DNA of 24,000 nt from an uncultured Alcaligenaceae bacterium (GTDB lineage: Bacteria; Planctomycetota; Planctomycetia; Gemmatales; Gemmataceae). Every line of letters begins with the position of its first letter. Position 1 is the first letter of the stretch. Shown in pieces: positions 736 to 24,000 of this stretch. The stretch lies in NCBI GenBank assembly GCA_964453375.1, contig CAYVRB010000019.1, forward strand, positions 536-24,535, written 5' to 3'. The position numbers were made by a program, and so were the translations under genes. Under the pieces are notes generated by a model. That model ran no database searches, was not told the DNA's origin, and saw only the letters and a list, made by a program, of their open reading frames with translations.

Positions 736-777
736 GGGTCCGAGTGTCGCGAGGGTGGGGGCGGATCGACGGCGACG

Positions 778-1935
778 CTACTCGGCCCGGTGCTTCTGGT
801 GGGCCAGGACTTTGTCCACCTTCTCGAACTCGAATTCCACCGTTTCGCCATCGTGGACCTGGCGGACCCCCTCGAGGATCACCTTGTCCTTGACGGTCAG
901 GCCGCTCTTGACGACGAAGATGTCGTCGAGTTCGTTCTGCACGACGATCTCGCGCTGACGCGCGACGCGGTCCTCGCCCACGACGAAGACGTACCGCTTG
1001 TCGAGGATCTCGAAGGTCGTCCGCTGGGGAATGACGATGGCGCCGTGCAGCGTCTTGTGAATCAGGACGTTGCCGGTCTGGCCGTGGCGGAGCAGGCGCT
1101 TCGGGTTCGGAAAATCGGCCCGGAACGGGATGTTCCCGGTCTCGTTGTTGAACTTCGCCTCGATGGCGCCGATCGCGCCCGTTTCGGGAAACGTGCTTCC
1201 GTCCGCGAGGACCAGCTCGATGCGCCGCGTCTCGCCCGGCGATTCCTTGCCGTCGGTCTTCGGCGCGAGGAGCTTGTCCTGCCCCGCCTGGTATTCGAGG
1301 TAGCGGGCCTCGGGCACGTTGAAATACACCCACATCACGCTGTTGTCGGAGAGCGTGGTGAGCACGTCGCCCTCCTTGATGAGGCTTCCCTGCTGCACCT
1401 GGAGGCGATCGACGATGCCGTCGAACGGGGCGCGCACGGTGGTGAGGTTCAATTCGGCCTCGGCCAATTTGGCCCGGGCCTTGGCCTTCGACAGCCGCGC
1501 CTGCTGGAGCGCCAGTTCGTTCGGGGAAACGACGTTCTGCTTGACCAGCCGTTCGGTGTTGTTGAATTCGAGTTGCGCGAGTTCGACTTCGGCCAGTTCG
1601 GCGTCGAGCTTCGCCTGGTAGAGCGTCGGGAGGATCTTGTACATCACGTCCCCCTTCTTTACCGTCTGGCCTTCCTTCAGCGTGATCGCTTCGAGGAAGC
1701 CGTTGTCCATGGCGCAGACTTCGATGTGCCGCTGCGAGCGGATCTGGCAGACGTATTGCTGCGTGACGATCACATCCTGGACGCTGGGGCTGGTGGCGAC
1801 GATCTTGTGGTGTTCGTGGTGTTCGTGCGGTTCCTCGTGCGGGCTGCAAGCCGGCAACGTGAGACACAACAGCGCGGCGAGCGCGGAGGAGAGCGTTTTG
1901 GCGAATCGGGCGGGCGGGCTTGGCGAGTGGTACAT
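778..1935 (-). CDS. RND efflux periplasmic adaptor (membrane fusion protein, HlyD/AcrA family), lipoprotein
   Basis: Track ORF 778..1998. It has the MFP-typical coiled-coil hairpin (LDAELAEVELAQLEFNNTERLVKQNVVSPNELALQQARLSKAKARAKLAEAELNL) and beta-barrel regions. The likely start is Met22 (ATG 1935..1933), which gives a signal peptide and lipobox LTLPAC. The ATG at 1998 lies inside the predicted sigma-54 promoter. The gene lies directly upstream of the RND pump. Confidence 0.85.
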   Translation of the reverse strand: MYHSPSPPARFAKTLSSALAALLCLTLPACSPHEEPHEHHEHHKIVATSPSVQDVIVTQQYVCQIRSQRHIEVCAMDNGFLEAITLKEGQTVKKGDVMYKILPTLYQAKLDAELAEVELAQLEFNNTERLVKQNVVSPNELALQQARLSKAKARAKLAEAELNLTTVRAPFDGIVDRLQVQQGSLIKEGDVLTTLSDNSVMWVYFNVPEARYLEYQAGQDKLLAPKTDGKESPGETRRIELVLADGSTFPETGAIGAIEAKFNNETGNIPFRADFPNPKRLLRHGQTGNVLIHKTLHGAIVIPQRTTFEILDKRYVFVVGEDRVARQREIVVQNELDDIFVVKSGLTVKDKVILEGVRQVHDGETVEFEFEKVDKVLAHQKHRAE

Positions 1936-1994
1936 GACGGCCACGATGCAGGGGTATCGACGGCCCCGAGCGGTCGGGGGTCGCCTGTCGTCAC

Positions 1995-2009
1995 GCAACT
2001 CATGTGCCA
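1995..2009 (-). promoter_or_regulatory. sigma-54 (RpoN) -24/-12 promoter upstream of the RND efflux operon
   Basis: The minus strand 2009->1995 reads TGGCACatgagTTGC, an exact match to the TGGCAC-N5-TTGC core. It lies about 60 nt upstream of the adaptor ATG at 1935. Confidence 0.6.
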
Positions 2010-2109
2010 GCGTGGTCTACCGAACCGGAGATGCCCATCGAGTATGAATTGGTCGGTGAAAATCAGGCGAAACCCCGCGCGAGGGTGGTTCCGCGGCAGT
2101 CAGGCTGAT

Positions 2110-2297
2110 TCGCGGGGAGCCACATCGTATGGCAGGCCGGCCGCGATCCGGGACCGAAGCGCGGCGTCTATTCTTGGAGCGAGTTCCTCACGAGACACAC
2201 GGAGATCTTGTGGGCCAGCGATTTCCTCACCGTGAGAACGTGGACCACGCGCGGGATCATCGGGCTGATCCGGCACTTCCACCGCTCCGCGGCCTGA
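2110..2297 (+). pseudogene. rve (integrase-core) transposase remnant lacking the N-terminus and the DDE core
   Basis: The frame reads [59 protein letters not shown]. The intact-core copy reads [48 protein letters not shown][156 codons]-GLIRHYHRSAA*. An in-frame TGA lies just upstream at about 2105. Confidence 0.75.
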
Positions 2298-2503
2298 AGC
2301 CGATCAAGAGCGCGGGCGGATCGCACAATGTTCCGATCGATTGGTTCGCGTCGAAGGACCGTGCCGGTTCGCAATTCGTGCCGATTACGTAATCGCCTGT
2401 CCACTCAATGCTTCCGGATTTCGGGTTGCGCTCGTCATGAACGGAGTGCAATTTCGTCTGGAAATCGCAATCGAAATGACAGGACAAGGTTTTTCCAGGA
2501 CGG
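2110..2503 (+). mobile_element. Decayed copy of the rve-integrase IS also present at 17705..18891 (5'-truncated, internally deleted, with the conserved non-coding right end)
   Basis: Collinear nucleotide similarity to 18040..18190 plus 18659..18891. The roughly 200-nt tail after the stop aligns with one 11-nt indel. Both copies end ...CCAGGACGG (2495..2503 and 18883..18891), after which the flanks diverge. Confidence 0.7.
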
Positions 2504-2567
2504 GTGGCGATTTCGATGCGGACATCCATGGCTTATCGCTAGACCGCCATGGATCTCGATCGTGATC

Positions 2568-3284
2568 TTAACGCGAGGGTCGGATTGATCCAATTTTGAG
2601 AACTGGCCAGCCGCGGCCGGTCACGAGTTGGCCCGTGACGGTGACAGGCTCGCCGACGAACTCGAAGTGGTCTTCGCCGAGGGGCCGGCCGTGCGAGTCG
2701 GTGGCGAGATCATAGCGGACCCCGCCGTCGGTCTTCGACACGAACAGCGGGGGGATGCCGCCACGCAGGCAGAGGATCGCGCAGCCCTTGTGCGTCTTGC
2801 CGCCGCCGGGCTTCATCGCGCCGAGGTAGCACTTCGCATCGACGATCTCGCCCGCCAATGTCACGGGCGTGGCGACTTCTTCCATCGCGCGCTCGGCTTT
2901 CCAGTCGATGGCCTGCAAGGCGGCGTCGCCGTCGCCGAGTTCGAGCATCTTCCTGCCGTCACGCTCGATCAGCGTGCCGGTCGCACGAACGCCTTGACCG
3001 TCGAACGGCCGGAGCCGATCCTGCGCGCCGAACTTGCCGGCCTCCACGAGCAGAATCGTTTCGGTCGGCGTGCGGAGCATCGCGTAGGGTTCAGCGACGG
3101 CGATGCCGTCGAAGGAGACTTCGCGGGCGTCGTCCCAGCGGCCGGGGCCGGCGGGTCGCTGCGAGGAGGAGAGGCCGGCGGCGAGCGCGAGGCCGGCGAG
3201 GACGACGCCGACCGCGAGCGGCCGCAGGAACCGCGCGAGGGCGGGCGGCATCGGGAACCAGCCGATGTAGTGTGGATCGTTCAC
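2568..3284 (-). CDS. Hypothetical membrane-anchored/exported protein with a C-terminal Cys cluster (CYLGAMKPGGGKTHKGCAILC)
   Basis: Track ORF of 238 aa. Its GTG start overlaps the stop of the upstream gene (GTGA at 3284..3281). An alternative ATG at 3251 gives MPPALARFLRPLAVGVVLAGLALAAG, a signal or anchor sequence. No family was recognised. Confidence 0.6.
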   Translation of the reverse strand: MNDPHYIGWFPMPPALARFLRPLAVGVVLAGLALAAGLSSSQRPAGPGRWDDAREVSFDGIAVAEPYAMLRTPTETILLVEAGKFGAQDRLRPFDGQGVRATGTLIERDGRKMLELGDGDAALQAIDWKAERAMEEVATPVTLAGEIVDAKCYLGAMKPGGGKTHKGCAILCLRGGIPPLFVSKTDGGVRYDLATDSHGRPLGEDHFEFVGEPVTVTGQLVTGRGWPVLKIGSIRPSR

Positions 3285-4330
3285 GGTTTCGCTCCGGGAA
3301 GGCGGACGGGTGGGACGGGCGTGCCGGGGGGCAGCGGTTCCGGATTCAGGAAGACGCGGCGGCCCTCGAGCCGGAGGCGGAAGGTGGCGATCCGCTCGTG
3401 GAAGGGCGGCGGCGAGCAGCCGTCTTCGGGGCGGTATTCCCAGCCGTGCCAGGGGCAGCTGATGCAGCCGTCGACGATCTTGCCTTCGCCGAGGGGGCCG
3501 CGTTGGTGGGCGCAGACGTTGGTGACGGCGGAGAGACCGCCGGCGTGGCGGAAGATGGCGACGCGCTCGCCGCCCGGCGTCGCGATCACCTTGGCGCGGT
3601 CCATCGGGATGTCGTTTGCGTTCCCAACGTCGATCCAGGCGACGTCGAGCGCGACGCGCCGATCGCGGCTCCGTTCGCGCCGGCCGACGGCGAGGTGCAG
3701 CCCGGCGACGGTCGCGAAGCCGGCGACGAGGAGGATCGGGTAGATCGCCTGCGTCTCGGATTGCAGCGCCCCGAGCGCGACGTGGAGCACAATCAGCCCG
3801 TAGGCCGGGTACGCGAGCATGTGCAGCGATTTCCAGGCGCTCGGCCCGAGGGTCTTCTGCCAGAAGTCGTGGCTGGTCGCGGCCATCAGGAAGAGGATCG
3901 CGAGGGCGAGAAGCCCCAGGATTTCAAAGGGGAACGCCACGAGCGAGGAATAATTCGCGTTCGCGGTGAGCAGCGAGAGGATCGGGTTGACGAGTCCAAA
4001 TCCGTGGTAGTAGCCGAGGGCGACGGCGGCGTGGCCGAGCGCGAGGAGGAACGTGGCGACGCCGAGGTGCCGGCGGTTGTAGAGGACGGGCAGGAAGCGG
4101 CGGTCGAGCCGCGCGAGCGGGCCGATGGCGAGGGCGACGTGCAGGAGGACGAACGCCGCCGTGCCGAGGGCGCGCAAGAGCAGGATCGGGAAGCCGATGG
4201 CGTCTTCGTCGAACAGCAGGGTGCCGACGGCGAGGAAGACGGCGAGGTAGCCGGCGATGCCCGCGGCGAGGATCGCGTCGTAGACGCGCTTGTTGCGGTT
4301 CCACTTCACGGGCCGATACGTCACGCTCAT
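3281..4330 (-). CDS. Ferric-reductase-like transmembrane (di-heme b type) domain fused to a C-terminal Rieske [2Fe-2S] domain
   Basis: The N-terminal ~200 aa contain six hydrophobic helices with paired His residues (LLHVALAIGPL, RRHLGVATFLLALGHA, WKSLHMLAYPAYGLIVLHV). The C-terminus has the Rieske motif CAHQRGPLGEGKIVDGCISCPWHGW (CxH...CxxH). Confidence 0.85.
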   Translation of the reverse strand: MSVTYRPVKWNRNKRVYDAILAAGIAGYLAVFLAVGTLLFDEDAIGFPILLLRALGTAAFVLLHVALAIGPLARLDRRFLPVLYNRRHLGVATFLLALGHAAVALGYYHGFGLVNPILSLLTANANYSSLVAFPFEILGLLALAILFLMAATSHDFWQKTLGPSAWKSLHMLAYPAYGLIVLHVALGALQSETQAIYPILLVAGFATVAGLHLAVGRRERSRDRRVALDVAWIDVGNANDIPMDRAKVIATPGGERVAIFRHAGGLSAVTNVCAHQRGPLGEGKIVDGCISCPWHGWEYRPEDGCSPPPFHERIATFRLRLEGRRVFLNPEPLPPGTPVPPVRLPGAKP

Positions 4331-4419
4331 CGCGGCAACCCCCGCAGGAGAATCAGGACCACGACGGGAACGAGTGCGAACCAGAGTCGAAGGTGCCAGC
4401 GGCGGTGCGACGCGGTCAC
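4327..4419 (-). CDS. 30-aa single-TM micro-protein (not in the ORF track)
   Basis: Own translation gives GTG-ACC...: MTASHRRWHLRLWFALVPVVVLILLRGLPR*. The GTG overlaps the upstream stop (GTGA 4419..4416) and its TGA overlaps the downstream ATG (ATGA 4330..4327). 25 of 30 codons end in G/C, as in neighbouring genes. Confidence 0.4.
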   Translation of the reverse strand: MTASHRRWHLRLWFALVPVVVLILLRGLPR

Positions 4420-4622
4420 GGCGAACCTCCGATCCACTTGCGGGCGAGGACCGGCCAGAGCGCGATCGTGCCGGGCAGGATCGCGAGTCGGAAGGCGAGC
4501 GACGTTCCCCGCGCGGCCGGATCGAGGCGCGTCACGCCGCGAGCGAGGAACGGCCCGGCGAACAGCAGGCCGAGGAGCGCATAGCCTGCGATGATCGCGA
4601 GGATGGCTTCGGCGACGATCAT
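4416..4622 (-). CDS. Small (68 aa) two-helix membrane protein, function unknown
   Basis: Track ORF MIVAEAILAIIAGYALLGLLFAGPFLARG...LAILPGTIALWPVLARKW. The ATG lies 12 nt after the SDR stop and is preceded by GGAGGA. Confidence 0.6.
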   Translation of the reverse strand: MIVAEAILAIIAGYALLGLLFAGPFLARGVTRLDPAARGTSLAFRLAILPGTIALWPVLARKWIGGSP

Positions 4623-12033: not shown

Positions 12034-12357
12034 GACGCGCCGCATGTCGGCCCATCGAGAGCAAACCCGGTACCGCCCGCCAGATTGATCGGCCGGGGGG
12101 TGGCCGGTACTCACGCGCTTCCGTCCCGTCGCGAGTGAGCGCCGGCCGTTCGTACCATCGCCAGGATTCCGATGCGAAGGGCCTCCGGCAGACTTGTCCA
12201 AGAGTCGATGAGCGAGAGCACTTCGGGATCGAAGACGGCCGGTGCGCCGGATTCTACGCCGCCGGACTCGAAATGCGGCGATTTCCCCATAAGTTCGACG
12301 AGGGTTCCAATCCCTCCCGCTCCGCTGTCATTTCTCGGCGTATGGGGATCTTCCGCC

Positions 12358-15300
12358 ATGCCCGCGCGCGAACCTGAGAAAGCCCCGGTCAGTCAAACCG
12401 GCCCGTGGACGCCGCAGACGGTCGTTTCGGCCGACGATTCGACCGGTGCCGCCGGAACCGAAGCCGCGTGGGACGGTCCGTCGCCCGTCATGCCCGGCTA
12501 CGAAATCCTCGGCCTCCTCGGCCGCGGCGGCATGGGCGTCGTCTATCGCGCCCGGCAGAGGCCGCTGAATCGCATCGTCGCCCTCAAGATGATCCTGTCC
12601 GACCGGGACCGCGCGGACCGGAAGGAACTGATTCGCTTTCTCGCCGAGGCCGAGGCCGTCGCGGCCGTGAAACACCCGCACGTCGTGCAGGTGTTTGAAT
12701 ACGGCGATAGCGAAGGCCGGCCGTTCCTCGCGCTCGAATACCTCGCCGGCGGCAGCCTCGCGGACCGTCTCAAGTTCCGCGGCCGACTCGAACCGAAACC
12801 GGCCGCGCGACTCGTGGCGCAGCTCGCGCAGGGGGTTCAGGCCATTCACGATCGCGGCATCGTCCACCGCGATCTCAAGCCGGGCAACGTTCTCTTCGAC
12901 GAATCCGGCGAGCCGAAGATTTCGGACTTCGGCCTGGCCAAGCGCGACGACCGCAACGACCTGACGGCGCGGCAAGCCATCATGGGCACGCCGGCGTACA
13001 TGTCGCCGGAGCAGGCCACGGGCGGCACCAAGTTCGTCGGCCCCGCCGCGGACGTGTATTCCCTCGGCGTGATCCTCTACGTCTGCCTGACCGGTACGAA
13101 ACCGTTCGAGGACGACGACCCGATCAGTCTGTTGCGGAAGGTTGCGGAAGAGGAACCGGAGCGCCCGCGCCGGCGTGTGCCGGGCTTGCCGCGCGATGTG
13201 GAATTGATCTGTTTGAAGTGCCTGGCGAAGGCGCCGCACGATCGCTACGCGACCGCGCAGGCGCTGGCGGACGACCTGGCGCGATTCGCGGCGGACGAAC
13301 CGGTGAGCGTTCGGCCGGCGGGCGCGATCGAACGCGCGGTGAAGTGGTCGCGACGCAAGCCCGCGCTGGCGACGGCGTACGGGCTGGCATTTTTCTCGGT
13401 CATGATCATCCTGTTCGGGGGCGGAGCGTTTGCGTTGTGGAGGACTCGCAAACAGGATGAAGCGAATCTGAAAAATGATCACGCCCGCGAGCGGGCCCGA
13501 AACTTGCTCGCGCTCGCTGCCGACGCCCGTAAGGATTATCGGTACGCTGCGGCGGAGCAAAATCTGTCGGAAGCGGGTGAACTCGCAGCGACGTTCGCCC
13601 CGGACCTCGACGCGGCTGTGAATCAAGCGAAGGCGGACCTCTCGTTCGTCCGTGAACTCGACGAGATTCGGATGGAACGTTCGACATGGCTTCCCGGTAT
13701 CGATGGTGGCGATGGACATTTTGAATCGGAACAAGCACCAAGGAAGTATCGAGACGCATTCCTGACACGAAAACACGATGTGGTTGCGAACCCCGAAGCG
13801 ACCGGAGCCACGGTGACCCAATCGGCGATTCGGATCGATCTCTTGGCCGCATTGAACGATTGGGCAATTTTGGAACCCGATGCGTTCATTCGAGACAGAG
13901 TCTTATCGGCCGTCGGTCGAGCGGACCCGAATTCCCCGGCAGCGCCCTTTCGTGATCCCGCCATTTGGCAAGACAGTAGCCAACTCTTGGCTTTGGTGGC
14001 AAAAATCGAAAAGACGCAGCTCTCGTCCGGCGATGCGATTGCCATCGCGTCAATCATGACAAAGCAAGGTTTGGACGCCGCACCGCTCTTACGTCGTACC
14101 ATGGCGCTCAATCCGCGCGATTTCCTGCCGCCATATACGCTGGGGATGATACTTCCGGCAGGTCCCGCCAAGAATCCCGAACGGGTCGGGGCGTTCCGGG
14201 CAAGTCGGGCCATCCGACCGGACAACGCCGCGGTGCTCGCCGCATTGGGGCACGCCCTCCACGGAATGGGCGACATTCCCGGCGCTCTCGCGGTATGGAA
14301 GGAAGCCGCAAGGGTCGATCCTCGCCACGCCCTCATTCACACGCAATTGGGTATCGGTTTGAAGGATTCCGGAGATTTGCCGGCCGCGATCGCGTCCTAT
14401 AAGGAAGCTGTACGACTGGATGCGAAATATTTTTTGGCCCACTACAATCTCTCGATCGCCTTGAAGGCATCGGGAGATCTCCCCGGCGCCGTCGCGTCCA
14501 TCCAAGAAGCCATTCGCCTCAAACCCGAGAGCGCCTTCTCTCACAACAACCTCGGGACTTATTACTGGGCCCAAGACCGCGACGGCGAGGCGATCGCCGC
14601 ATTCAAAGAAGCGATTCGACTCAATCCCAAGTACTTGTATCCACGGAATAATCTCGGAGGCGTGTATTCCCGTCAGAAGAAGCACGTCGAGGCGATTGCG
14701 GAGTTCAAGGAAGCGATCCGGCTCGATCCCAAATACGTTTCGCCCCACATCGGTCTCGGACACGCGTACTTGGATCTGGAGCAATATACGGAGGCGATCG
14801 CGACATTCAAAGTCGCGAATCGGTTGGATCCCAAATCAACTCTACCACTGATCGGTTTAGGCTCGGTCTATCACAAGCAGGAAAAGTACGCGGAAGCAAT
14901 TGCCGCGCACAGAGTCGCCATTGGCATCGACACCAATAGCGCTGCTGCCTACTCGTGTCTCGGAGATTCTCTGAGAGCCAGTGGGGAATTGGATGAAGCG
15001 ATACTTGCATATCGAGATGCGATTCGTCTCAAGCCGATGAAAGCCGAGTATCATGCCGAATTGGGGGATGCGCTGGCCGACGCGGCGCTCTGGGCGGACG
15101 CGGTCGCGAACTATGCCAACGCAGTCGATCTCGATCCCCAACTCGCGTCCGTTCACAATAGTTTGGCGTGGCTCTTGTCGACGGGACCTACCGAGATTCG
15201 CAATGGAAAACGGGCCGTCGAACACGCGGAAAAGGCCGTGAGATTGACCGAAGGAAACAAGGCGATTTATATTGATACTCAGGCGGCCGCGTTTGCGGAA

Positions 15301-17430
15301 TCGGGTGATTTCGCCAAGGCGATTGAATCCCAGAAGCGAGCGCTCGCCGTACCGGAATATGTACGAGAACTCGGTACCGAAGGTCGGAAACGGCTGGCGC
15401 TCTATCTGCGAAATCAACCGTATCGCGATACGATCATGCAAGCCCGAGGACACTATCACCGTGGTATGTCATTTCGGAATCGTGGCGATTTCGAGAACGC
15501 GATCGCACAACTCCAGGCATCGATCCAACTTGCGCCAAACGATCTCGCCACCCGCAAGACGCTGGAACATCTGTTGAAAGATAAGGCCGAAGCTGGCCTG
15601 ACCTTGCTGGAACATACTTCCGCAACGCGGGCACTCGGATTCAGTTCCGATGGATCCATGATCGTCACGAGCGACTCGAAACTCGTCCGGATCTGGAATG
15701 CGAAAACGGGAAATACATCGTTCAAACTGGAATCGCCAAGTCCCGTCGCACGCGTGCAGTACGGACCGAATGGACGAGTCCTTTCCGTATGCAATTTAGA
15801 ATCCGTCGTCCGACTGCACGATTCCGCCACGGGAAAATTGAAAGGCCTTGTGCGTTCGCCCAAGGGCATTTTGATCGATGCCATCTTCGGAGCGGCAGGC
15901 AATCGAATCGTCGCGTTGAGCGCCGGCGGCTCCTTCTTCGTGATGGAACCCGACGGAATGCTCGTCAAATCCTTTCCCGCGTTCGAGGGAAAACTTTCGG
16001 TCACCAGAATGGCTGTCAGTCCCGATGGGAATCGTGTATGCGTGGGTCTCGGTATCGGCTCCGAATGGAGCGGAAAAATATGGGATCTCTCTTCGGGGAC
16101 GCCGGTCGCCTCGTGGAAGGCCGGGGTCATCTATTCGGTGGCATGGAGCCCGGATGGCAAGTCGATTGCTTCGGCGGAAGCGGACCGCCAATTGTTCATT
16201 CGTGATGCCGCGACGGGGCTCCCTCGAACGGTGATTCCTGTCAACCAATCGTCCTCTACGACGGCGTCGGCCGTTGCGTATGGTCGCGATTCCAACACGG
16301 TGGCGATCGTGTGCTTCAACGGCACCGTGGAAGTGTGGGACCTCGGCGCGAAGAAAATCGTATTCGCACGCAAGTTGGATCCGACCGAGATCGGCCCCGG
16401 AGCTGCAACATTCAGCCCTGATGGCAAGAGGCTCGCGGCCAGCGCTCCGGGAATCGTCCGGATTTGGGATCTGCCGTCCTCCATCGTACTTCCAAGACCG
16501 AACGCGATGTCCGGTGAAATCGCCGTTCCAAGTTCGCTACGTCAAATCATCCCACAGACCGGTTCCGTCCTCGCCTTGGGTTTCAGTCCGGACAGTGCTC
16601 GCCTCGTCGTTGGGGACACGAAGGTCGTCCGCGTTTGGGATGCGCGAACCGCGCGTGAAGTGTTTACGCTCAACGTGCCGGGGAATCAGTTTCGCGCGTC
16701 GTATAGTACTGCCGGGCATATTCTCTCTTTGAGCAATTCGGAATTCACCGTTCGCCTTTGGGACGCCGCGACCGGCAAGCCACTGCCGGCATTGCCGACA
16801 CTCCAAGGCGCCGTGCGTGAAGCCGTATTCTCGCCGGACGGAAAGCGCGTCGTCTGTGCCGATGCTACGGGGGCTTTCTCGGTGCTGGACCTTCCAAGCA
16901 ATAAGCTTACGCGTAGTGCCGTCGCATTCGACCCTAAACATATCCTCAACGGATTCGCAATCAGCCCCGACGGTCGAAAAGTTTGTTTTGGTACGGGCAA
17001 ATCGCCCGATTGGTCGGTAAAGGTCTGGGACCTCGAGCAAAACAAAGTGGTTCTTTCCACGCCGTCCCAGGAAAAACCCGTCTGGAGTGTCGCCTGGAGC
17101 GCGGACGGGAAGTGGATCGCCTCCGGCGGGGTCGATCAATCGGTGAAGGTCTGGCACGCCGACACTGGCAAACTTCACAAGACCCTCGCCGGCGCGACGA
17201 AGACCGTCGCGCGCGTCGCCATCCATCCCGACAACCACCGCATCGCGGCCACCTGCTTCGACGGCGTCGTTCGCGTCTGGGAGGTCGGGACGGGACAAGT
17301 GGTCGAATCCTTCACGTTTGAGAATCCCGGCATCGGCAACGTCGTCTTCAGTCCGGACGGCCAGAGGCTCGCCGCCAGCGCTCCGGGCGCGGTCAAGATT
17401 TGGGAATTGTCGGGCGCGAAGCGGCCCTGA
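12358..17430 (+). CDS. Ser/Thr protein kinase - TM helix - TPR array - two tandem WD40 beta-propellers (1690 aa from ATG 12358)
   Basis: Hanks kinase motifs are GRGGMGVVYRA, VALK, HRDLKPGNVLF, DFGLA and GTPAYMSPEQ. The TM helix is ALATAYGLAFFSVMIILFGGGAFALW. More than 12 34-aa TPR units follow (AIAxFKEAIRLDPKY...), then WD repeats (FSPDG...VRIWD) to the stop. The track ORF begins at 12172, but the ATG at 12358 gives the usual short leader before the PGYEILG kinase start. Confidence 0.9.
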   Translation: MPAREPEKAPVSQTGPWTPQTVVSADDSTGAAGTEAAWDGPSPVMPGYEILGLLGRGGMGVVYRARQRPLNRIVALKMILSDRDRADRKELIRFLAEAEAVAAVKHPHVVQVFEYGDSEGRPFLALEYLAGGSLADRLKFRGRLEPKPAARLVAQLAQGVQAIHDRGIVHRDLKPGNVLFDESGEPKISDFGLAKRDDRNDLTARQAIMGTPAYMSPEQATGGTKFVGPAADVYSLGVILYVCLTGTKPFEDDDPISLLRKVAEEEPERPRRRVPGLPRDVELICLKCLAKAPHDRYATAQALADDLARFAADEPVSVRPAGAIERAVKWSRRKPALATAYGLAFFSVMIILFGGGAFALWRTRKQDEANLKNDHARERARNLLALAADARKDYRYAAAEQNLSEAGELAATFAPDLDAAVNQAKADLSFVRELDEIRMERSTWLPGIDGGDGHFESEQAPRKYRDAFLTRKHDVVANPEATGATVTQSAIRIDLLAALNDWAILEPDAFIRDRVLSAVGRADPNSPAAPFRDPAIWQDSSQLLALVAKIEKTQLSSGDAIAIASIMTKQGLDAAPLLRRTMALNPRDFLPPYTLGMILPAGPAKNPERVGAFRASRAIRPDNAAVLAALGHALHGMGDIPGALAVWKEAARVDPRHALIHTQLGIGLKDSGDLPAAIASYKEAVRLDAKYFLAHYNLSIALKASGDLPGAVASIQEAIRLKPESAFSHNNLGTYYWAQDRDGEAIAAFKEAIRLNPKYLYPRNNLGGVYSRQKKHVEAIAEFKEAIRLDPKYVSPHIGLGHAYLDLEQYTEAIATFKVANRLDPKSTLPLIGLGSVYHKQEKYAEAIAAHRVAIGIDTNSAAAYSCLGDSLRASGELDEAILAYRDAIRLKPMKAEYHAELGDALADAALWADAVANYANAVDLDPQLASVHNSLAWLLSTGPTEIRNGKRAVEHAEKAVRLTEGNKAIYIDTQAAAFAESGDFAKAIESQKRALAVPEYVRELGTEGRKRLALYLRNQPYRDTIMQARGHYHRGMSFRNRGDFENAIAQLQASIQLAPNDLATRKTLEHLLKDKAEAGLTLLEHTSATRALGFSSDGSMIVTSDSKLVRIWNAKTGNTSFKLESPSPVARVQYGPNGRVLSVCNLESVVRLHDSATGKLKGLVRSPKGILIDAIFGAAGNRIVALSAGGSFFVMEPDGMLVKSFPAFEGKLSVTRMAVSPDGNRVCVGLGIGSEWSGKIWDLSSGTPVASWKAGVIYSVAWSPDGKSIASAEADRQLFIRDAATGLPRTVIPVNQSSSTTASAVAYGRDSNTVAIVCFNGTVEVWDLGAKKIVFARKLDPTEIGPGAATFSPDGKRLAASAPGIVRIWDLPSSIVLPRPNAMSGEIAVPSSLRQIIPQTGSVLALGFSPDSARLVVGDTKVVRVWDARTAREVFTLNVPGNQFRASYSTAGHILSLSNSEFTVRLWDAATGKPLPALPTLQGAVREAVFSPDGKRVVCADATGAFSVLDLPSNKLTRSAVAFDPKHILNGFAISPDGRKVCFGTGKSPDWSVKVWDLEQNKVVLSTPSQEKPVWSVAWSADGKWIASGGVDQSVKVWHADTGKLHKTLAGATKTVARVAIHPDNHRIAATCFDGVVRVWEVGTGQVVESFTFENPGIGNVVFSPDGQRLAASAPGAVKIWELSGAKRP

Positions 17431-17478
17431 CGCCGGCACGAACGATTCCCGGAGATTCGGAATTCCCATCGCGCCCCT

Positions 17479-17700
17479 CCCGTCCTGGACAACCTGCAAA
17501 CCCACAAGGTCCAGGCCGCCGTCGACGCGGTGCACGCCGTCGGCGCCCGCGTGCTGTACCTGCCGCCCTACAGCCCCGACTTCAATCCGATCGAACAAGT
17601 CTTCTCCAAGATCAAGAACGAGTTGCGACGCCGCGAACTCCGCACCATCCCCGAACTGGAAAACGCCTTCGGCGAATCGCTCGATTGGATCACTCGCAAG
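17479..17700 (+). pseudogene. IS630/Tc1-mariner-type DDE transposase, C-terminal fragment only
   Basis: The frame reads PVLDNLQTHKVQAAVDAVHAVGARVLYLPPYSPDFNPIEQVFSKIKNELRRRELRTIPELENAFGESLDWI. This carries the family signature LDN..HK ... LPPYSP-x-xNPIE. No upstream part and no start are present, and it is broken at about 17700 by the rve sequence. Confidence 0.7.
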
Positions 17701-17704
17701 GAGC

Positions 17705-18694
17705 GTCGAGTTCCTTCGCGAGGAGAACCGCATCCTCCGCAGCAAGCTGCCGGAACGGATCGAGATCACGCCGCGCGAGCGATCCCGGCTGTTGAGGTTT
17801 GGACGGAAGCTTGGCAAGGCCATCGGCGGCGTCATCACCATCGTCTCGCCGCGGACCTTTGCCCGGTGGCTCGCCGGCGAGAAGAAACGGCCGAAGCGAA
17901 GCAGCCGCAAGCCGGGCCGGCCACGGACGGAGGAAAGCGTTCGCGATCTCGTATTGCAGTTGGCCCGCGAGACGGGCTGGGGATACTCGCGCTTTCTCGG
18001 CGAGTTGAAGAAACTCGGCATCGGCACCGTGAGTCGCTCGACGGTGATCAACATCTTGCGCGTGGCCGGTCTCGATCCCGGGCCGAAGCGCGGCGTCGGA
18101 TCGTGGAGCGACTTCCTGACGCGGCACGCGGAAACCTTGTGGGCCAGCGACTTTCTCACCGTGAAGACCTGGACCACGCGCGGGATCGTCGATCTGTCAG
18201 TGCTGTTCTTCATCCACCCCGGCACGCGGAAGGTGTTCATCGGCGGCGTCAGCGCGAACCCGGACGCGGCTTGGATGAAACAGCAAGCCCGCAACGCGAC
18301 GATGCGGATGGAGGAGATGGGGCACCCGGTCTCGCACCTGATCATCGATCACGACGGGAAGTACGCGAAGGAGTTTGATGCAATCTTCGAGGCCGAGGAT
18401 GCGAAGGTGCAGCGTGTCGGGCCGAGGGCCCCAAACTTGAACGCCCATGCGGAGCGGTTCGTCCAATCGCTCCGGAACGAGTGTTTGGATCACTTCGTTT
18501 TCTGCGGCGAGAAGCATGTGCGGCACGTTTTGACGGATTATTTGGCCCACTATAACTCGGAGCGGCCGCACCAGGGGATCGGCAACGTGCCGCTGTCGGA
18601 CGGTGCCAAGGCCGTGAAGCCCACGAAGGGCCGGATCAATTGCCGCAAGCGACTCGGCGGGCTGATCCGGCACTACCACCGCTCCGCGGCGTGA
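17705..18694 (+). pseudogene. rve (integrase-core, DDE) transposase lacking its 5' end and start codon
   Basis: The frame reads VEFLREENRILRSKLPERIEITPRERSRLLRFG...GRPRTEESVRDLVLQLARETGWGYSRFLGELKKLGIGTVSRSTVINIL (HTH region). The DDE core follows: LWASDFLTV..., HLIIDHDGKY and NLNAHAERFVQSLRNECL. The 129 aa preceding it in track ORF 17318..18694 are out-of-frame readthrough of the kinase and IS630 sequence. Confidence 0.8.
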
Positions 18695-18898
18695 AGCCGA
18701 TCGAGATTGCGGGCGGTTCCGATCGATCTGATCGCGTCGAAGGTCCGCGCTCGCTCGCAAATCGCCCCGTTTCTGTAAACGCATGTCCACCAAACGTTGC
18801 TCGAATTTGGACATCCCTTGTCCTGCTCCGGTTGCGGTTTCGTCTGGAAATTGCAGCGCGAACGATTGGACAGAGTTTTTGACCAGGACGGACGCACA

Positions 18899-19252
18899 CT
18901 ACCGGCTTTCGTATTTAATTAATTGGCTCATGTACTCATGAAATGCTTCGTCAATCTTTTTGTGGCATACAGATTCCCATATGAATAGCAACTGATCTAA
19001 TGGCCCCTCATGAGGCACCATGTCTCCGCCAAAACCAATACAGTTATCGGCTCGAACGACGCCATCTGCACCCGAGTATGCGATTTCGTTCTCCGCTGTT
19101 GTAAACGCAAGATTCGGACATCGCTGCCCCGAAACCCCGGCAGTGAAACAATGCAAACTAGGCATTGAACGTCCATCGCTGCAAATGCAGGCTACATCCT
19201 TTTCGCCTTCGGAATCACGAAGACAATATATCTCTAATATAATGTGCCTCAT
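18899..19252 (-). CDS. Hypothetical 117-aa Cys-rich protein; candidate immunity protein for the orphan RHS toxin
   Basis: Track ORF MRHIILEIYCLRDSEGEKDVACICSDG.... It is same-strand, 87 nt downstream of the RHS stop, and shares the low G+C of the toxin tip. No family was recognised. The call rests on position only. Confidence 0.45.
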   Translation of the reverse strand: MRHIILEIYCLRDSEGEKDVACICSDGRSMPSLHCFTAGVSGQRCPNLAFTTAENEIAYSGADGVVRADNCIGFGGDMVPHEGPLDQLLFIWESVCHKKIDEAFHEYMSQLIKYESR

Positions 19253-19339: not shown

Positions 19340-22300
19340 TTAGTGGTAATCAACAATTTCAATTACATTGATTGTATCATCGGTGATGGTATAGACTATT
19401 CTCATTCGGCCTCTGCCTCCACCTGAGCCGGGTAAGTCTGCGGCAAATTGTCCCTTTCTGTCGCCAGTTAGCGGATGCTGGTTTCGCCCGGCCTTTCCCA
19501 AGGTTAAGTCATTGACAATCTCGTCATGGGCTTTCTTCTGCTGATCCGTCAGCTTGTCATAATCCTTTTGCGCTTTCTGTGATTGCTTGATACCCTTCTG
19601 CTTAACAGGAAGTTTTCTTAGTTCTGCCGCTGATGGTATCTCAATATTTTGATCCCACAGTTGCTTGGCAAGCTCCGGATTCTTAAGATCCGCCTTGTCC
19701 TCATCGCAAGGATTCTTCAGTCTTTTCTTGATTTCAGTGCGCAGATCATCTGCTTCTTTAGTTGATTTTGCGAGCTTTAGCCTATTAACAAGATTGCAAA
19801 GTCGTTCATTGTGCACCCAGATCGCGAAGTCCCAGCCCGCACCGCCCACGAAGAACGTGTGGTACTCGCCGACCTCAATGTTATACACGACTTCGGGCAC
19901 ATCGGACTGCTCGATAGCGTCGATTGTGCGGTAGTCGCCATCCTTGCCGCGGACCTCCACGCCCGCGTTCAGCTCATGCAGTGGCTGCCAGCCCCGGCCA
20001 CGCACGTAGAGCGGGTGGCCTGATGTCATCCGCAATGTCTGACCGCCGATCCGCACTGTCCACGCCGGTGCGACGCTCCGAATCGCCTGTTGAATGACCT
20101 GGACGCCGACCGTGCAATCTGGATCGTCCTCGCACGCAGAATAGACGAGGTCGCCGGGTTGCAAGTCTTCAATTGGTCTAGGGCCGTTTGGGGTCAAGAT
20201 CGGCGTGCCCGCAACGAAGCAGCCCGTAAGAGCTTCAGCAAGCGACGATCCCAATGCGGCCTGTCCGTTCGTGCGTTCGATATCGTCGAGTGCTCTGTTG
20301 ATCTTCTCCAACTGTTTGGGATCGGTCGTCTTGCCGGCCGCTTCCGCCAGATCCATTGCCGCCTGCTCGGCTATCGGTCCGGCGTTTCCAGCCTTGAGCT
20401 TCTTGAGTATCTTGGCAGCCTTCGCCTTCATCAGGGTCTTAACGGCGCTCATGACTTTGCCGGCGCCACTCCCGCACAAGACGCTTAAGCCGGCTTTGAT
20501 GAATGCTTTGCTTGGATTTTCTTTCCAGTCCTTCAAAAACTCGTTTTTCATCGCCTCTCGCACTCGCTCGTCAGTCGCAAGCAAGTAGATGGCCTCGGCA
20601 AGTTCTAACGCGAATTTCTTTGGATCTGTAATGATCTTGCCGACCAGTTCAGCCGTCTCGTTCACCATTTCCTTTACAGCTTGTCCAAAGTTTTCGAAAC
20701 CTTCACCTAAGCCTTCTTTGGCATTGTCGATAAATCCCTTCGGATCATTCCAGGCATACTCAATAATCATCTTTTGTTCATCGATGAAGCCTTTGCCAAA
20801 ACGGATTGCCCGCTCAGCGGTATCTGAAGCCACAGCCTCGGTCTCATCAAAAAATTGATCGATAGCGTTCGGACCGGTGATTCCCTGTTCGCGATCCACT
20901 GTCGCCATCCAATAATCTACATACCTGGTCCCAATATTGTCATATCGCCTTTGAACCAATCCTCCTCGTGGATTCCCTCCTGCGAATAAATGATGCGTAC
21001 TGCGATTATCGATTGCGGCGTCGAGGATTTCATTGACTGCGTCTTCAGAATAGTACTGCAACAGCGCCTGACGTAATTTCTCTCGATGATTCGGATTGAT
21101 CCAGAGAAATTGGCCGCGGCTATCACCGACCCAACCGTGTTGAATACCATTGGCATTCAAAAAATCAGCAAAGTTCTGGTAATCACCGGGTCGATCGACG
21201 ATCCAGTAATTCCCGCTCGGATCCACCCCGTTCGTCGCCCCGTTGCCAACGTAGCGGTACAGATTCGGGTCTTCTCCTGCCTGCCGGATGCCGTCCTCGC
21301 CCATCCAGCGGCCCGTCGACGGGTCGTACATCCGCGCCCGGCTGTACTGCAAACCCAGCGTTTCGTCCCATTCTCTTCCCGTGAACGCGTAGCGATCGAC
21401 CGGCACGCCGCCAAGGAAGCCGCCGAAGGCGTCGTAGTCCGTTTCGCCGCTCGTCGCGCCCGAATTGTCAAAGACCTGGCGGACCGAACCCAGCCGATCC
21501 GTTGCATACCACGATACATCCCCGCCCGCGTCCTGGCGAGCCACGACCTCGTCGAAGCCCGCCCCGAACACCCGGCGATCCGTCACGGCGCCCGTGCCGT
21601 CCAGATCGAGAATCGTATCGAAGTTCTCCGTCCCGATCGCGCTCGGTTTCGTCGTGTCCCACCCATCGACGACGTACTGGGCTTCGATCGTGGTGGTGCC
21701 GTCCGTTTCTGTACGGCCGATGCGGTTGCCAAACGCATCATACGCATACGTTACCGTCGTCGTGCCATCAGTCGCTTCCGTCATCTGCCCGCGCAGGTCG
21801 TATTCGTACGTCCATGCTTCCCCGGTCTTCGATTTGCCGACTACGTTGCCATCGAGATCGTGCGCGTATGTCCAAGTCCCGTCTTCCGTCATTCGATTGC
21901 CGTCGGCGGTGACATAACCACTGAGCGTGCGATTCCCCGTCGCATCGTACGAAATCGTCGAACTGTTCCGGGCCGTCACCTGCCCGATGGCATCGTAGCT
22001 GTAAGTCGTGGTGACGCTGTCTTCCACTTTCTCCGTGAGCCGGTTGGCAAGATCGTACTCGTAGGCGTAGTCGGCGATGAGCGTGCCGGCCCCGGAGCCG
22101 GTGCGGTGCTCGATGTCGACGAGCCGGCCGCCGTCGTCGTAGGCGTAGCTGGACTTTCCTTCCTGTGTGGTGCCGGTCAGGTCGCTGAACCGCGTGACCG
22201 TGGCGAGCTCGTCGCGGTCGGTGTAGTTGTAATCGAAGCGCAGGTCGCCGGACGGACCGTCGAGCTTCCGGCTGGTCAGCCGGTTGGCGAGGTCGAAGGT

Positions 22301-22723
22301 GCTGGTCTGCGTACCGCCCTTGGAGTCGGCGACGGACGTGCGGTTGCCGGCCCCGTCGTAGGCGAAGGTGAGCGTCACGCCGGAGGGGGTTTCGACTTCC
22401 TCGGCCCGGTTCAGCTCGTCGCGGACGATCGTGTAGTCGCCGTCCGGGTCGGTCGCCGAGACGAGGAAGCCCGCGTCATCGTAGCCGAAGGTCTGCGTCT
22501 GGAGCAGCGAGTTGCCGGCCGAGTACCAGGCTTCCGATGTCCGGCGGTTGGCGTCGTCGTAGCCGAAGACCCGCTCGCGGCCCTCCCGGTCGACGATCGA
22601 GACGAGCCGCCCGGCATCGTCGTAATCGTAGACGATCGACTCGGAGTAGGCGTCGGTCTCGGAGGTCAGCCGGTTCAGCTTGTCGTAGGCGAAGGTGTGT
22701 TTGTTGGCGGAGGCGTCCTCCAT
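19340..22723 (-). CDS. RHS/YD-repeat polymorphic toxin, 5'-truncated (orphan) copy, with a HINT domain and a YoeB/RelE-like C-terminal domain
   Basis: YD repeats run throughout the N-terminal ~500 aa (FAYDKLNRLTSETDAYSESIVYDYDDAGRLVSIVDREGRERVFGYDDANRRT...). The core-terminal motif is YSRARMYDPSTGRWMGEDG...YRYVGNGATNGVDPSGNY. The reading frame with YD repeats stays open upstream of the first ATG to about 22885 (THFYDDADRIVTVIDPLDYETAYEFDELDRVV...) with no start codon. Confidence 0.85.
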   Translation of the reverse strand: MEDASANKHTFAYDKLNRLTSETDAYSESIVYDYDDAGRLVSIVDREGRERVFGYDDANRRTSEAWYSAGNSLLQTQTFGYDDAGFLVSATDPDGDYTIVRDELNRAEEVETPSGVTLTFAYDGAGNRTSVADSKGGTQTSTFDLANRLTSRKLDGPSGDLRFDYNYTDRDELATVTRFSDLTGTTQEGKSSYAYDDGGRLVDIEHRTGSGAGTLIADYAYEYDLANRLTEKVEDSVTTTYSYDAIGQVTARNSSTISYDATGNRTLSGYVTADGNRMTEDGTWTYAHDLDGNVVGKSKTGEAWTYEYDLRGQMTEATDGTTTVTYAYDAFGNRIGRTETDGTTTIEAQYVVDGWDTTKPSAIGTENFDTILDLDGTGAVTDRRVFGAGFDEVVARQDAGGDVSWYATDRLGSVRQVFDNSGATSGETDYDAFGGFLGGVPVDRYAFTGREWDETLGLQYSRARMYDPSTGRWMGEDGIRQAGEDPNLYRYVGNGATNGVDPSGNYWIVDRPGDYQNFADFLNANGIQHGWVGDSRGQFLWINPNHREKLRQALLQYYSEDAVNEILDAAIDNRSTHHLFAGGNPRGGLVQRRYDNIGTRYVDYWMATVDREQGITGPNAIDQFFDETEAVASDTAERAIRFGKGFIDEQKMIIEYAWNDPKGFIDNAKEGLGEGFENFGQAVKEMVNETAELVGKIITDPKKFALELAEAIYLLATDERVREAMKNEFLKDWKENPSKAFIKAGLSVLCGSGAGKVMSAVKTLMKAKAAKILKKLKAGNAGPIAEQAAMDLAEAAGKTTDPKQLEKINRALDDIERTNGQAALGSSLAEALTGCFVAGTPILTPNGPRPIEDLQPGDLVYSACEDDPDCTVGVQVIQQAIRSVAPAWTVRIGGQTLRMTSGHPLYVRGRGWQPLHELNAGVEVRGKDGDYRTIDAIEQSDVPEVVYNIEVGEYHTFFVGGAGWDFAIWVHNERLCNLVNRLKLAKSTKEADDLRTEIKKRLKNPCDEDKADLKNPELAKQLWDQNIEIPSAAELRKLPVKQKGIKQSQKAQKDYDKLTDQQKKAHDEIVNDLTLGKAGRNQHPLTGDRKGQFAADLPGSGGGRGRMRIVYTITDDTINVIEIVDYH
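19343..19600 (-). other. YoeB/RelE-superfamily mRNA-interferase-like toxin domain at the extreme C-terminus of the RHS protein
   Basis: Hand alignment to E. coli YoeB as I recall it. KGIKQSQKAQKDYDKLTDQQKKAHDEIVNDL aligns with KLIWSEESWDDYLYWQETDKRIVKKINELIKDT. HPLTGDRKGQFAADL aligns with EPLKHNLSGFWSRRI. RIVYTITDDTINVIEIVDYH aligns with RLVYAVTDDSLLIAACRYHY. Confidence 0.55.
19808..20221 (-). other. HINT (Hedgehog/intein-like, pre-toxin HINT/BIL-type) self-cleaving domain inside the RHS C-terminal region
   Basis: The 138-aa domain starts CFVAGTPILTPNGPRPIEDLQPGDLVYS and ends VYNIEVGEYHTFFVGGAGWDFAIWVHN. The next residue is Glu, not Cys/Ser/Thr, so cleavage rather than splicing is expected. 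Confidence 0.75.
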
Positions 22724-22923
22724 CCAGGTCCGGTTGCCGTTGGCGTCGTAGCCGAAGGTCGTGTCGTTGTCGAGCGCGTCGGTGACGACGACGACGCGGT
22801 CGAGCTCGTCGAACTCGTAGGCCGTCTCGTAATCGAGCGGATCGATGACGGTGACGATCCGGTCGGCGTCGTCGTAGAAGTGAGTAGCGTCTCCTATCCT
22901 TTCCCGTCCCTTTTTTAATCCAC

Positions 22924-23565
22924 CTATCCAATACCGCTTTTATCCAAGTACTTACGAAATTCAAGAAGGCCGAAATCATTGCGATCTACCAAGAAAGCCA
23001 ATTTAATATTGGACAATTTTTGGGCAGCTTCTTCGCCGTTCGCTATTAACGCCATAGCCACAGCTCGCTTAGCTCTTTCGCCATGAAGCGGCGAATGAAG
23101 CCAGGAAGCTGGGCCATCTCCACTTAGAACTTCCAATGCTTTCTGCGGATCGGAGTATGTTTCAATATAGGGAATACCAATCTTTGCAAATGCTTCTAAC
23201 ACTGATTCCGCGACTCCTAGAATATCATCTGAACATGCCAAAGTCCATCTCCTTTGTCGGCCTTCGCTAAGGTTGCCCAACTCGCAACCCAAAGTAAAAG
23301 TGTTCGTCTTCTCAGACTTTGTAAGCAATGGATCGTTCATATAGCGACTGATCAGTTCCTCTACCTGATCAAACCGAATAGCAACATCTGCAGTGACATC
23401 AAAATCATTGTCGTGTTTAATAAATGCCAAGTGGAATGAGGCACGGCCAAAAGGGCAGCTTTTTAGAAACGATTGCCCCTTAGGTCGATTGTCAAAACCG
23501 AACTTCTGAAGACCCTGGCCGACTGCTAACAAGAGTTTGTCTTGCCATATTTTAAAATTTTTCAT
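22924..23565 (-). CDS. Hypothetical 213-aa protein; candidate immunity protein for the upstream nuclease-type toxin
   Basis: Track ORF MKNFKIWQDKLLLAVGQGLQKFGFDNRPKGQSF.... Its ATG overlaps the toxin stop by one base (TAATG, 23567..23563), and it has low G+C. No family was recognised with confidence. Confidence 0.5.
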   Translation of the reverse strand: MKNFKIWQDKLLLAVGQGLQKFGFDNRPKGQSFLKSCPFGRASFHLAFIKHDNDFDVTADVAIRFDQVEELISRYMNDPLLTKSEKTNTFTLGCELGNLSEGRQRRWTLACSDDILGVAESVLEAFAKIGIPYIETYSDPQKALEVLSGDGPASWLHSPLHGERAKRAVAMALIANGEEAAQKLSNIKLAFLVDRNDFGLLEFRKYLDKSGIG

Positions 23566-24000
23566 TAAGGCACCCTTCGCTCGATTGTAGGTATGGTGAC
23601 TCGTGTACCTTCAAGACCAGTGGGAGCGTTCTTCCCCACTATTACTCCTCCTTCGGTTGCTATCGCATTATCCTTTGCAATTTGTGTTGCATCACGAACC
23701 GCGCCACCAGATTTTACTTCAACAGCGACTATTCTGCCGTCAGGCGTTCGGATCAGGTGATCTACAACACGATTACCTTGTGAAGTACGAATAGTGACTT
23801 GGCTGCCAAGAATCGTGTTGCCTTCACTTTCAAGTTGTTTTGCCACAGTGATTTCCGCTGCCTTGCCAGCTGCTCGATTAGTCGCCAAAATCTCTGCTTT
23901 AGTCCTAGCTGCCTTCGGAGGCGCCGGACAGTCCGTCTTGCCGAGATTTTTTGAAGAAGCGGACAATTCATCGTCGAATTCCTTGCCCGCTTTCTTGAGG
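23565..24000 (-). CDS. 3' end of a larger toxin gene entering from the right edge; C-terminal PD-(D/E)xK (restriction-endonuclease-fold) nuclease-like domain
   Basis: The track starts it at TTG 23966, but the frame is open to position 24000 (LKKAGKEFDDELSASSKNLGK...). The tip AAEITVAKQLESEGNTILGSQVTIRTSQGNRVVDHLIRTPDGRIVAVEVKSGGAVRDATQ shows the E...D...E-x-K...Q arrangement of REase-fold toxin domains. Confidence 0.65.
   Translation of the reverse strand, partial: LKKAGKEFDDELSASSKNLGKTDCPAPPKAARTKAEILATNRAAGKAAEITVAKQLESEGNTILGSQVTIRTSQGNRVVDHLIRTPDGRIVAVEVKSGGAVRDATQIAKDNAIATEGGVIVGKNAPTGLEGTRVTIPTIERRVP

Follow-up and report, generated by a model that had tools for sequence, protein, structure and literature searches.

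Polymorphic toxins that combine RHS repeats, a HINT protease and a RelE-type toxin have been described previously: Table 1 of Zhang, de Souza, Anantharaman, Iyer and Aravind (2012) lists Tox-RelE with "Proteases: HINT; Repeats: RHS" (PMC3482391). In polymorphic toxins, HINT lies just before the toxin, is read as a releasing peptidase, and never occurs together with a type VI secretion system (T6SS) (PMC3482391). In P. laumondii Rhs1, the C-terminal aspartyl-protease plug cuts after the second DPLGL motif, and the substitution D1338N abolishes cleavage (PMC8636562). Type A bacterial intein-like (BIL) domains end in His-Asn, with no nucleophile at position +1; they give mainly cleavage products, splicing still being possible (PMC4031507). 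In the ribosome-dependent mRNase HigB, residues His54, Asp90, Tyr91 and His92 are crucial to its activity (PMC5027501). In this study, an orphan rhs gene was analysed in a 24,000-nt stretch of DNA from an uncultured bacterium (positions 536 to 24,535 of contig CAYVRB010000019.1, GenBank assembly GCA_964453375.1), hereafter the window. The region of interest is probably the variable C-terminal region (CT) of an orphan rhs cassette, in which two pre-toxin pieces, termed A and B, are followed by a type-A BIL/PT-HINT autoprotease and by a Lys-rich linker with a HigB/RelE-like mRNA endonuclease.

An orphan rhs gene truncated at its 5′ end

The open reading frame (ORF) and its parts, all on the minus strand, are as follows.

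19340..22723, minus: orphan rhs ORF, 1127 aa counted from the first listed ATG; stop codon 19340..19342
21209..22894, minus: Rhs core fragment (RHS/YD repeats), 5′-truncated; RHS_repeat PF05593, E 1e-30
21212..21436, minus: Rhs-associated core domain (C-terminal plug / aspartyl protease), residues 430-504, TIGR03696
21209..21223, minus: DPSGN, second DPxG motif, residues 501-505; predicted cut after Asn505, by analogy with P. laumondii Rhs1
20792..21205, minus: sub-module A, residues 507-644 (module residues 1-138), directly past the cleavage site
20255..20740, minus: sub-module B, residues 662-823 (module residues 156-317), pre-HINT
19808..20221, minus: PT-HINT / type-A BIL domain, Cys835 to Asn972, 138 aa
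19631..19807, minus: Lys/Glu/Asp-rich linker, residues 973-1031, 59 aa, K 15 %
19343..19630, minus: HigB/RelE-like toxin domain, residues 1032-1127, the last 96 aa

The 1127-aa ORF is a 5′-truncated orphan rhs fragment, because no start codon precedes its repeats, a main rhs gene and a putative immunity gene lie ahead of it, and its core is colinear with that of the main gene. PF05593 matched 6 stretches of the ORF, and TIGR01643 matched with E 5e-29. The frame is open to 22939, and RHS-repeat sequence (GDATHFYDDADRIVTVIDPLDYETAYEFDELDR) begins near 22894, directly past the stop of the upstream 213-aa gene. Frame analysis revealed no ATG, GTG or TTG in the orphan frame ahead of the ATG at 22723; the latter is simply the first start codon found by the ORF lister, and coding for RHS repeats extends approximately 170 nt upstream of it. 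The core is colinear with residues 409-987 of the main Rhs (a partial product), with 50 % aa identity, and the similarity ends at DPSGN. Only about 560 aa of core are left, the complete shell with N-terminal plug and secretion domain being absent; as encoded, the orphan can neither form a closed shell nor be secreted. The frame is intact over 1199 codons, including approximately 1.4 kb of low-GC sequence with a GC content at third codon positions (GC3) of 0.45-0.55.

TIGR03696 matched residues 430-504 with E 2.2e-16 and 60.1 bits, against a cut-off of 32.5. The sequence DPSGNY forms residues 501-506, with the Tyr506 codon at 21208..21206, and the first DPxG motif is degenerate (EDGIR) with its Asp retained. 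An original prediction, made from the letters of the window, had placed the end of the RHS core at DPSGNY (codons to 21206) and taken it for a site of aspartyl autoproteolysis. The position agrees with direct indexing and with the TIGR03696 match above cut-off, and the assignment of DPSGN as the Rhs C-terminal aspartyl-protease site is supported at the level of motif and family. The same prediction divided the sequence that follows into segments of 328, 138 and 155 aa, and these lengths are exact (20222..21205, 19808..20221 and 19343..19807).

The HINT domain

The codon of Cys835, which starts the motif CFVAGTP, is at 20221..20219, and the codons of His971-Asn972, which end the motif WVHN, are at 19813..19808; Glu973 follows. 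PF07591 matched residues 842-973 with 47.7 bits against a cut-off of 27.7, and the best PDB sequence match was the Clostridium thermocellum BIL domain 2lwy (E 7.5e-14). The block-B motif TxxH is kept as T-S-G-H, aligned to T-F-D-H of 2lwy. By sequence, the assignment as a HINT domain is secure, in accordance with the predicted 138-aa HINT bounded by Cys and His-Asn and followed by Glu.

At the level of motifs, the domain holds every residue needed for an N-S acyl shift and Asn cyclisation, and it has no +1 nucleophile. The residue after His-Asn is E here, D in the relative P0001 and A in the relative P0002, none of which is a nucleophile (P0001 to P0006 are six related proteins dealt with below). 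A canonical intein was rejected, given that neither a +1 nucleophile nor an endonuclease insert is present. From the Glu, cleavage without splicing had been predicted; this is mostly right in that cleavage dominates, but type A BILs can also splice without a +1 nucleophile (PMC4031507). Double self-processing of the CT is plausible at the level of motifs.

The HigB/RelE-like tail

The whole post-HINT tail of 155 aa has a mass of 17.5 kDa and a pI of 9.2. Its first 8 residues, ERLCNLVN, belong to the linker and resemble the 8 post-HINT residues of P0001 (DELCDLLA, then stop). An AlphaFold2 (AF2) model of the last 96 aa had pLDDT 76 and pTM 0.61, with the order beta-alpha-alpha-beta-beta-beta-beta. 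When this model was compared with the PDB using Foldseek, members of the RelE/ParE superfamily were found at ranks 1-8, 10 and 13 (best E 7.4e-5; TM 0.55-0.71). They included M. tuberculosis RelE1 (E 7.4e-5) and RelE2, H. pylori HP0892/HP0894 and A. tumefaciens YoeB/ParE, and further the RelE domain of Cami1, HigB2 and ParE2.

Hidden Markov model (HMM) matches to RelE/ParE families span nearly the whole profile and lie at the extreme C-terminus: ParE_toxin (E 0.006-0.026, 15.5-17.6 bits vs 23, profile positions 1-82 of 89), YoeB_toxin (11.9-14 bits vs 27, profile positions 4-76 of 80) and TIGR02385 RelE/StbE (E 0.014, 15.9 bits vs 27.9). In a phmmer alignment to Proteus vulgaris HigB, HPLxGDRxG and the C-terminal Asp-Tyr-His are in common, and His54, Asp90, Tyr91 and His92 of HigB align with H1083, D1125, Y1126 and H1127. 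The RNase-like tip of the original prediction is borne out by the RelE/ParE fold (AF2 and Foldseek) together with the conserved catalytic residues of HigB. From the fold model and these residues we conclude that the tip is a predicted mRNase of the RelE superfamily, probably ribosome-dependent.

The 328-aa segment consists of two pieces

The segment between DPSGNY and HINT (20222..21205) had been taken for a single 328-aa module that was helical and rich in Lys, Glu and Ala. When 1.84 billion representatives were searched exhaustively with HMMER, six relatives only were obtained, and these split the query. Sub-module A is 29-38 % identical to the stretch right after DPSG in P0003, P0004, P0005 and P0006, and the payloads downstream of it differ: a C-terminal domain of approximately 130 aa in P0003, PT-TG in P0004 and P0006, and a Pro-rich linker with a truncated HINT in P0005. 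Sub-module B is 44-48 % identical to P0001 and P0002, in both of which it lies immediately upstream of PT-HINT. Judged by these relatives, the 328 aa do not form a single module but two pieces, A and B, that are shuffled independently among the six. The predicted composition holds for B (residues 662-823: K 13.6 %, E 9.9 %, A 16 %), which is helical, and fails for A, in which K makes up 1.4 % of the 138 aa and the start is predicted to be alpha-beta-beta-alpha-alpha.

No match of A or B above noise was found in Pfam, NCBIfam or among PDB sequences. Weak matches of A (Rhomboid_N with E 0.002, below cut-off, and DUF2538) and of B (GlgE_dom_N_S, DUF4836 and "B domain") were treated as chance. Identity of B with the pre-toxin domain PT-TG was rejected, since PF14449 gave no match even at E <= 10; in P0004 and P0006, PT-TG is present downstream of A rather than in its place. 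The structural check that had been proposed for 20222..21205 was of limited yield: a single-sequence AF2 model of the module was poor (pLDDT 50), with B confident only in its last 70 aa or so, and Foldseek against the PDB returned only designed helical proteins with E > 0.5, which were taken as meaningless. The model has an alpha-beta-beta-alpha-alpha unit opening A and an all-helical B, as far as the latter agreeing with the prediction, and no known family was found.

Other searches added little. A word-indexed search of 5.8 billion clusters returned nothing at E <= 1e-3 for the 328-aa module alone or the tail alone, and a chimeric-row profile keeping the columns of A and B recovered P0005 only. 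Pattern scans gave no relatives in genome contigs (B, then A patterns) or in metagenome contigs (tail, then B patterns). In hhalign, the A profile against the post-DPSG region of P0001 gave E 0.12, which is not significant.

A weak likeness was also seen in the CT of the main Rhs, at residues of about 1114-1165 of its 1305-aa partial product on contig L001, where FIDRYSDAAQIRFVAFLAKKGWNIVRDRAGKILRATPP weakly resembles the N-terminal motif of A, IVDRPGDYQNFADFLNANGIQHGWVGDSRGQFLWINP. With E 0.042 and a very low probability in hhalign, A profile against main Rhs CT, it is a lead only; if the likeness is real, the small A1 unit would recur in this Rhs clade as a pre-toxin element.

From position and shuffling pattern, A and B are most likely non-catalytic pre-toxin modules for delivery or adaptation.

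Mosaic structure of the C-terminal region

The CT is built as a mosaic, with four units that are shuffled separately, namely A, B, HINT and tail. P0001 has 71 % identity in the core, 22 % in A, 48 % in B and 58 % in HINT; its tip is lost, the protein halting 8 aa past His-Asn (WVHNDELCDLLA*). P0002 is 61 % identical in the core, 44 % in B and 40 % in HINT, has no A, and carries a barnase-type Ribonuclease domain (PF00545) as its tip. In P0003 the identity is 48 % in the core and 38 % in A; B and HINT are missing and the tip is a different domain. Recombination junctions in the segment comparison lie at the DPSG site, at the A/B boundary and at or just after the His-Asn of HINT, which supports these points as functional module borders.

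GC3 was 0.84 for the core, 0.46 for A, 0.63 for B, 0.75 for HINT and 0.45 for the tail; a 117-aa ORF downstream also had 0.45. These steps inside one ORF (19343..22723) match the borders derived from homology and are an independent sign of mosaic assembly.

Several of the relatives showed features of their own. The gene of P0001, on contig L004 (1..5641), encodes A'-B-HINT and is preceded by three same-strand ORFs with RHS repeats (576, 198 and 101 aa), an arrangement that suggests a single long rhs gene interrupted by frameshifts or assembly errors, with the toxin tip lost. This contig was considered as a syntenic locus of main gene, immunity gene and orphan; the possibility was rejected, as its 198-aa and 101-aa ORFs themselves carry RHS repeats. 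P0005 (contig L003, 1110..2615) is a 5′-truncated Rhs with the end of the core, A, the Pro-rich linker and the first 30 or so aa of HINT; it follows a 188-aa TPR protein and appears to be a degenerate orphan. P0003 is the sole full-length relative (2884 aa; contig L005, 8001..16655) and has FG-GAP and Calx-beta domains at its N-terminus; its Pfam scan listed no family associated with T6SS. On visual inspection, the C-terminal domain that follows A has a pattern of Cys…His…Asp (GYFCYEW, THFWLVI, IYIDDG), which hints at a papain-like or transglutaminase-like toxin. A phage-type integrase and a gene with a TIR domain are among the neighbours of P0003.

Proposed mechanism and alternatives

The mechanism proposed for the cassette presupposes that the CT is attached to a complete Rhs shell. 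The Rhs aspartyl protease would cut after DPSGN505. After delivery the HINT would fold, and cyclisation of Asn972 would free a 17.5-kDa basic toxin; optionally, hydrolysis of the Cys835 thioester would detach A-B. The toxin would then cut mRNA in the ribosomal A site, and an immunity protein would shield the producer. A may be the new N-terminal handle of the released CT, for entry or retention, and B a spacer tied to HINT that presents HINT and toxin.

Several points weigh against this interpretation. The CT (622 aa) has a mass of 69 kDa and, at 1.21 Å^3 per Da, a volume of about 83,000 Å^3, while the cavity of P. laumondii Rhs1 has about 28,000 Å^3; it is thus doubtful that the CT is fully enclosed, unless this clade has a much larger shell or part of the CT stays outside. 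Orphan and main core are 66 % identical in DNA over 1534 nt with a longest exact match of 23 nt, so that recombination of the orphan onto the main gene now appears unlikely. The relatives are often degenerate, P0001 stopping 8 aa past HINT and P0005 having a truncated HINT. For the tail, the AF2 model was built from a single sequence, all RelE/ParE profile matches stayed below their curated thresholds, and the phmmer alignment to HigB (E 1.3) is not significant alone. No recognisable immunity family, Imm54 included, was found by Pfam at the locus, and the roles suggested for A and B are drawn from position and shuffling pattern.

A joint reading of the data goes further and is unlikely as a whole. 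In it, A and B would be undescribed pre-toxin domains, and B plus HINT a portable release cassette to which various RNases are attached, HigB-like here and barnase-like in P0002. The oversized cargo would be unfolded or partly outside the shell, A would be the shared handle at the new N-terminus made by Rhs autocleavage, and HINT self-cleavage would act as a post-ejection trigger, its dependence on folding freeing the RNase only after delivery.

Alternatively, the ORF might be a dead remnant, that is, a decaying and never-deployed pseudogene fragment whose motifs are relics of a former toxin. The missing start codon and N-terminal domain, the remains of an insertion sequence (IS) downstream, a core that has diverged from that of the main gene (nt identity 66 %, with no exact match longer than 23 nt), the truncated relatives and a locus with no immunity gene on record all agree with decay. 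Against decay stand a frame kept intact over 1199 codons, approximately 1.4 kb of it low in GC, where stops would arise quickly, and the retention of all catalytic residues at the DPxG site, in the HINT and at the HigB-like site; we regard decay as improbable. The HINT might also splice, the amine freed by Asn cyclisation attacking the Cys835 thioester, so that HINT is excised and an A-B-linker-RelE product of about 54 kDa remains. Its nearest solved relative is the BIL domain 2lwy, and type A BILs with His-Asn and without a +1 nucleophile can splice (PMC4031507). Cleavage products dominate in type A BILs, however (PMC4031507), the location of polymorphic-toxin HINT at the boundary of conserved and variable parts is consistent with release (PMC3482391), and the +1 residue varies among the relatives (E, D, A); splicing thus has only a slim chance of being the true outcome.

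Least credible is expression of the 1127-aa ORF as such from the ATG at 22723, as a self-contained toxin without a complete Rhs shell. The ORF is long, intact and headed by an in-frame ATG, and NCBI and Logan records list its protein as a called gene. Against these points, coding for RHS repeats runs on for about 170 nt upstream of the ATG without a start codon, no Shine-Dalgarno-like sequence was seen ahead of 22723, and the product has no secretion or plug domain. Its 505-aa core cannot close a cocoon, the Rhs1 shell needing about 1085 aa plus plugs (PMC8636562). We give this possibility hardly any weight, and the orphan cassette with HINT-mediated release of a RelE-type toxin is retained as the probable explanation.

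The surroundings of the orphan gene

The neighbouring features are listed below.

23565..24000, minus: 3′ end of the main rhs gene, running off the window; tip NERD / restriction-endonuclease-like (PF08378 NERD, E 3e-6)
22924..23565, minus: 213-aa gene between main rhs and orphan, GC3 0.41
18899..19252, minus: candidate immunity ORF, 117 aa, 87 nt past the toxin stop
17318..18694, plus: IS debris bordering the rhs locus; rve_3 integrase core (E 3e-15), DDE_3 fragment in another frame

Along the minus strand, the locus would thus read main rhs with a NERD-like tip, the 213-aa immunity gene, the truncated core with the 622-aa CT, a possible 117-aa immunity gene and IS debris. The main part occupies 22924..24000 of the window (minus) and is extended by positions 1..4560 of Logan contig L001, which is 100 % identical to the window and lengthens the main rhs ORF to 1305 aa. 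On this contig the main Rhs contains RHS repeats in 16 stretches, and NERDPSGN closes its own core. The DNA sequencing runs SRR13608701 and SRR13608702 contain the locus. Approximately 200 aa of unannotated pre-toxin sequence separate its DPSGN from the nuclease tip, which shows a D…EVK motif.

The 213-aa gene had no family match in Pfam and is presumed, from its position and low GC3, to be the immunity gene of the main Rhs toxin. The 117-aa ORF has an AAGGTG (Shine-Dalgarno-like) 4 nt ahead of its ATG and a GC3 equal to that of the toxin tail. It had no family match and is not a called gene on record, including on the two Logan contigs covering the locus; by position it is a possible cognate immunity gene of the orphan toxin. 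An Imm54-type partner was also looked for: the 8 ORFs examined between 18639 and 19343 had no significant Pfam match, the best being Med15_N (E 0.0099, below cut-off).

The IS debris consists of overlapping transposase remnants, an rve_3 core with an HTH_32 domain and a C-terminal fragment of a DDE_3 transposase, and near 18800 the GC content falls from about 0.63 to about 0.45. The remaining window holds ordinary chromosomal genes, and no T6SS genes are present in it. Scans for consensus promoters and terminators yielded nothing usable. ARAGORN placed a tRNA-Ser(CGA) at 12236..12325 (plus), inside the 5′ end of a 1752-aa ORF (12172..17430) for a Ser/Thr kinase with TPR and WD40; because of this overlap, the true start of the ORF is probably downstream of the tRNA.

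Comparison with known systems

The original prediction named no precedent for this particular stack of domains. Such a precedent exists, since Tox-RelE with HINT and RHS was listed in 2012 (PMC3482391) and the architecture RHS + HINT + RelE is of an already known kind. The orphan CT shares with the listed proteins the RHS repeats, a HINT before the toxin, a C-terminal toxin of the BECR/RelE fold and a non-T6SS context. It differs from them in the approximately 330 aa of unannotated A + B between the cleavage site and HINT, in the 59-aa Lys-rich linker between HINT and the RelE domain, and in being 5′-truncated with no Imm54-type immunity gene detected. As far as searched, the new parts are A and B, rare and unannotated pre-toxin pieces that are undescribed within the searches made.

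In organization the gene resembles the orphan rhs-CT/immunity modules (Poole 2011, PMC3150448; Koskiniemi 2014, PMC3967940), in that a main rhs gene and a putative immunity gene precede it, part of the core is kept, start codon and N-terminal domains are lost, and the toxin tip is a different one. In contrast to these modules, its own immunity gene is a candidate only, and the recombination route of the Salmonella orphans is unlikely here, with core DNA only 66 % identical and a longest match of 23 nt.

The tip resembles Proteus vulgaris HigB and the RelE-family ribosome-dependent mRNases (PMC5027501) in fold, in HPLxGDRxG with the His54 equivalent and in the C-terminal Asp-Tyr-His (D90-Y91-H92). 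Unlike HigB, it stands outside a type II toxin-antitoxin pair, is fused to a secreted-toxin scaffold behind HINT, contains a Gly-rich insert of 8 residues (PGSGGGRG), and shows similarity below family thresholds. The HINT is alike to those of the C. thermocellum BIL (2lwy) and of Streptomyces UmbC (8w20), each a mini-HINT of about 138 aa with Cys1, TxxH, His-Asn and no +1 nucleophile; UmbC also carries HINT and toxin at the end of a helical stalk. The differences are that the host protein here is an Rhs and that the helical B has no detected sequence similarity in PDB or Pfam.

CdiA-CT and colicin toxins are reportedly bipartite, with an N-terminal entry domain and a C-terminal nuclease. The likeness to them is by analogy only, in that a non-catalytic N-terminal part (A) shuffles independently of the toxin; there is no homology.

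Unannotated spacers are common in polymorphic toxins, and A and B are accordingly of modest interest; the cassette does not overturn current understanding. It adds a probably non-T6SS example, known to date from metagenome-type assemblies only, to the Rhs + HINT + RelE-type architecture predicted in 2012, in which HINT-mediated toxin release has had hardly any experimental tests. The oversized cargo raises a question of packaging for such payloads, and A and B are candidate delivery modules for those Rhs toxins that have to enter their target cells without an injection apparatus.

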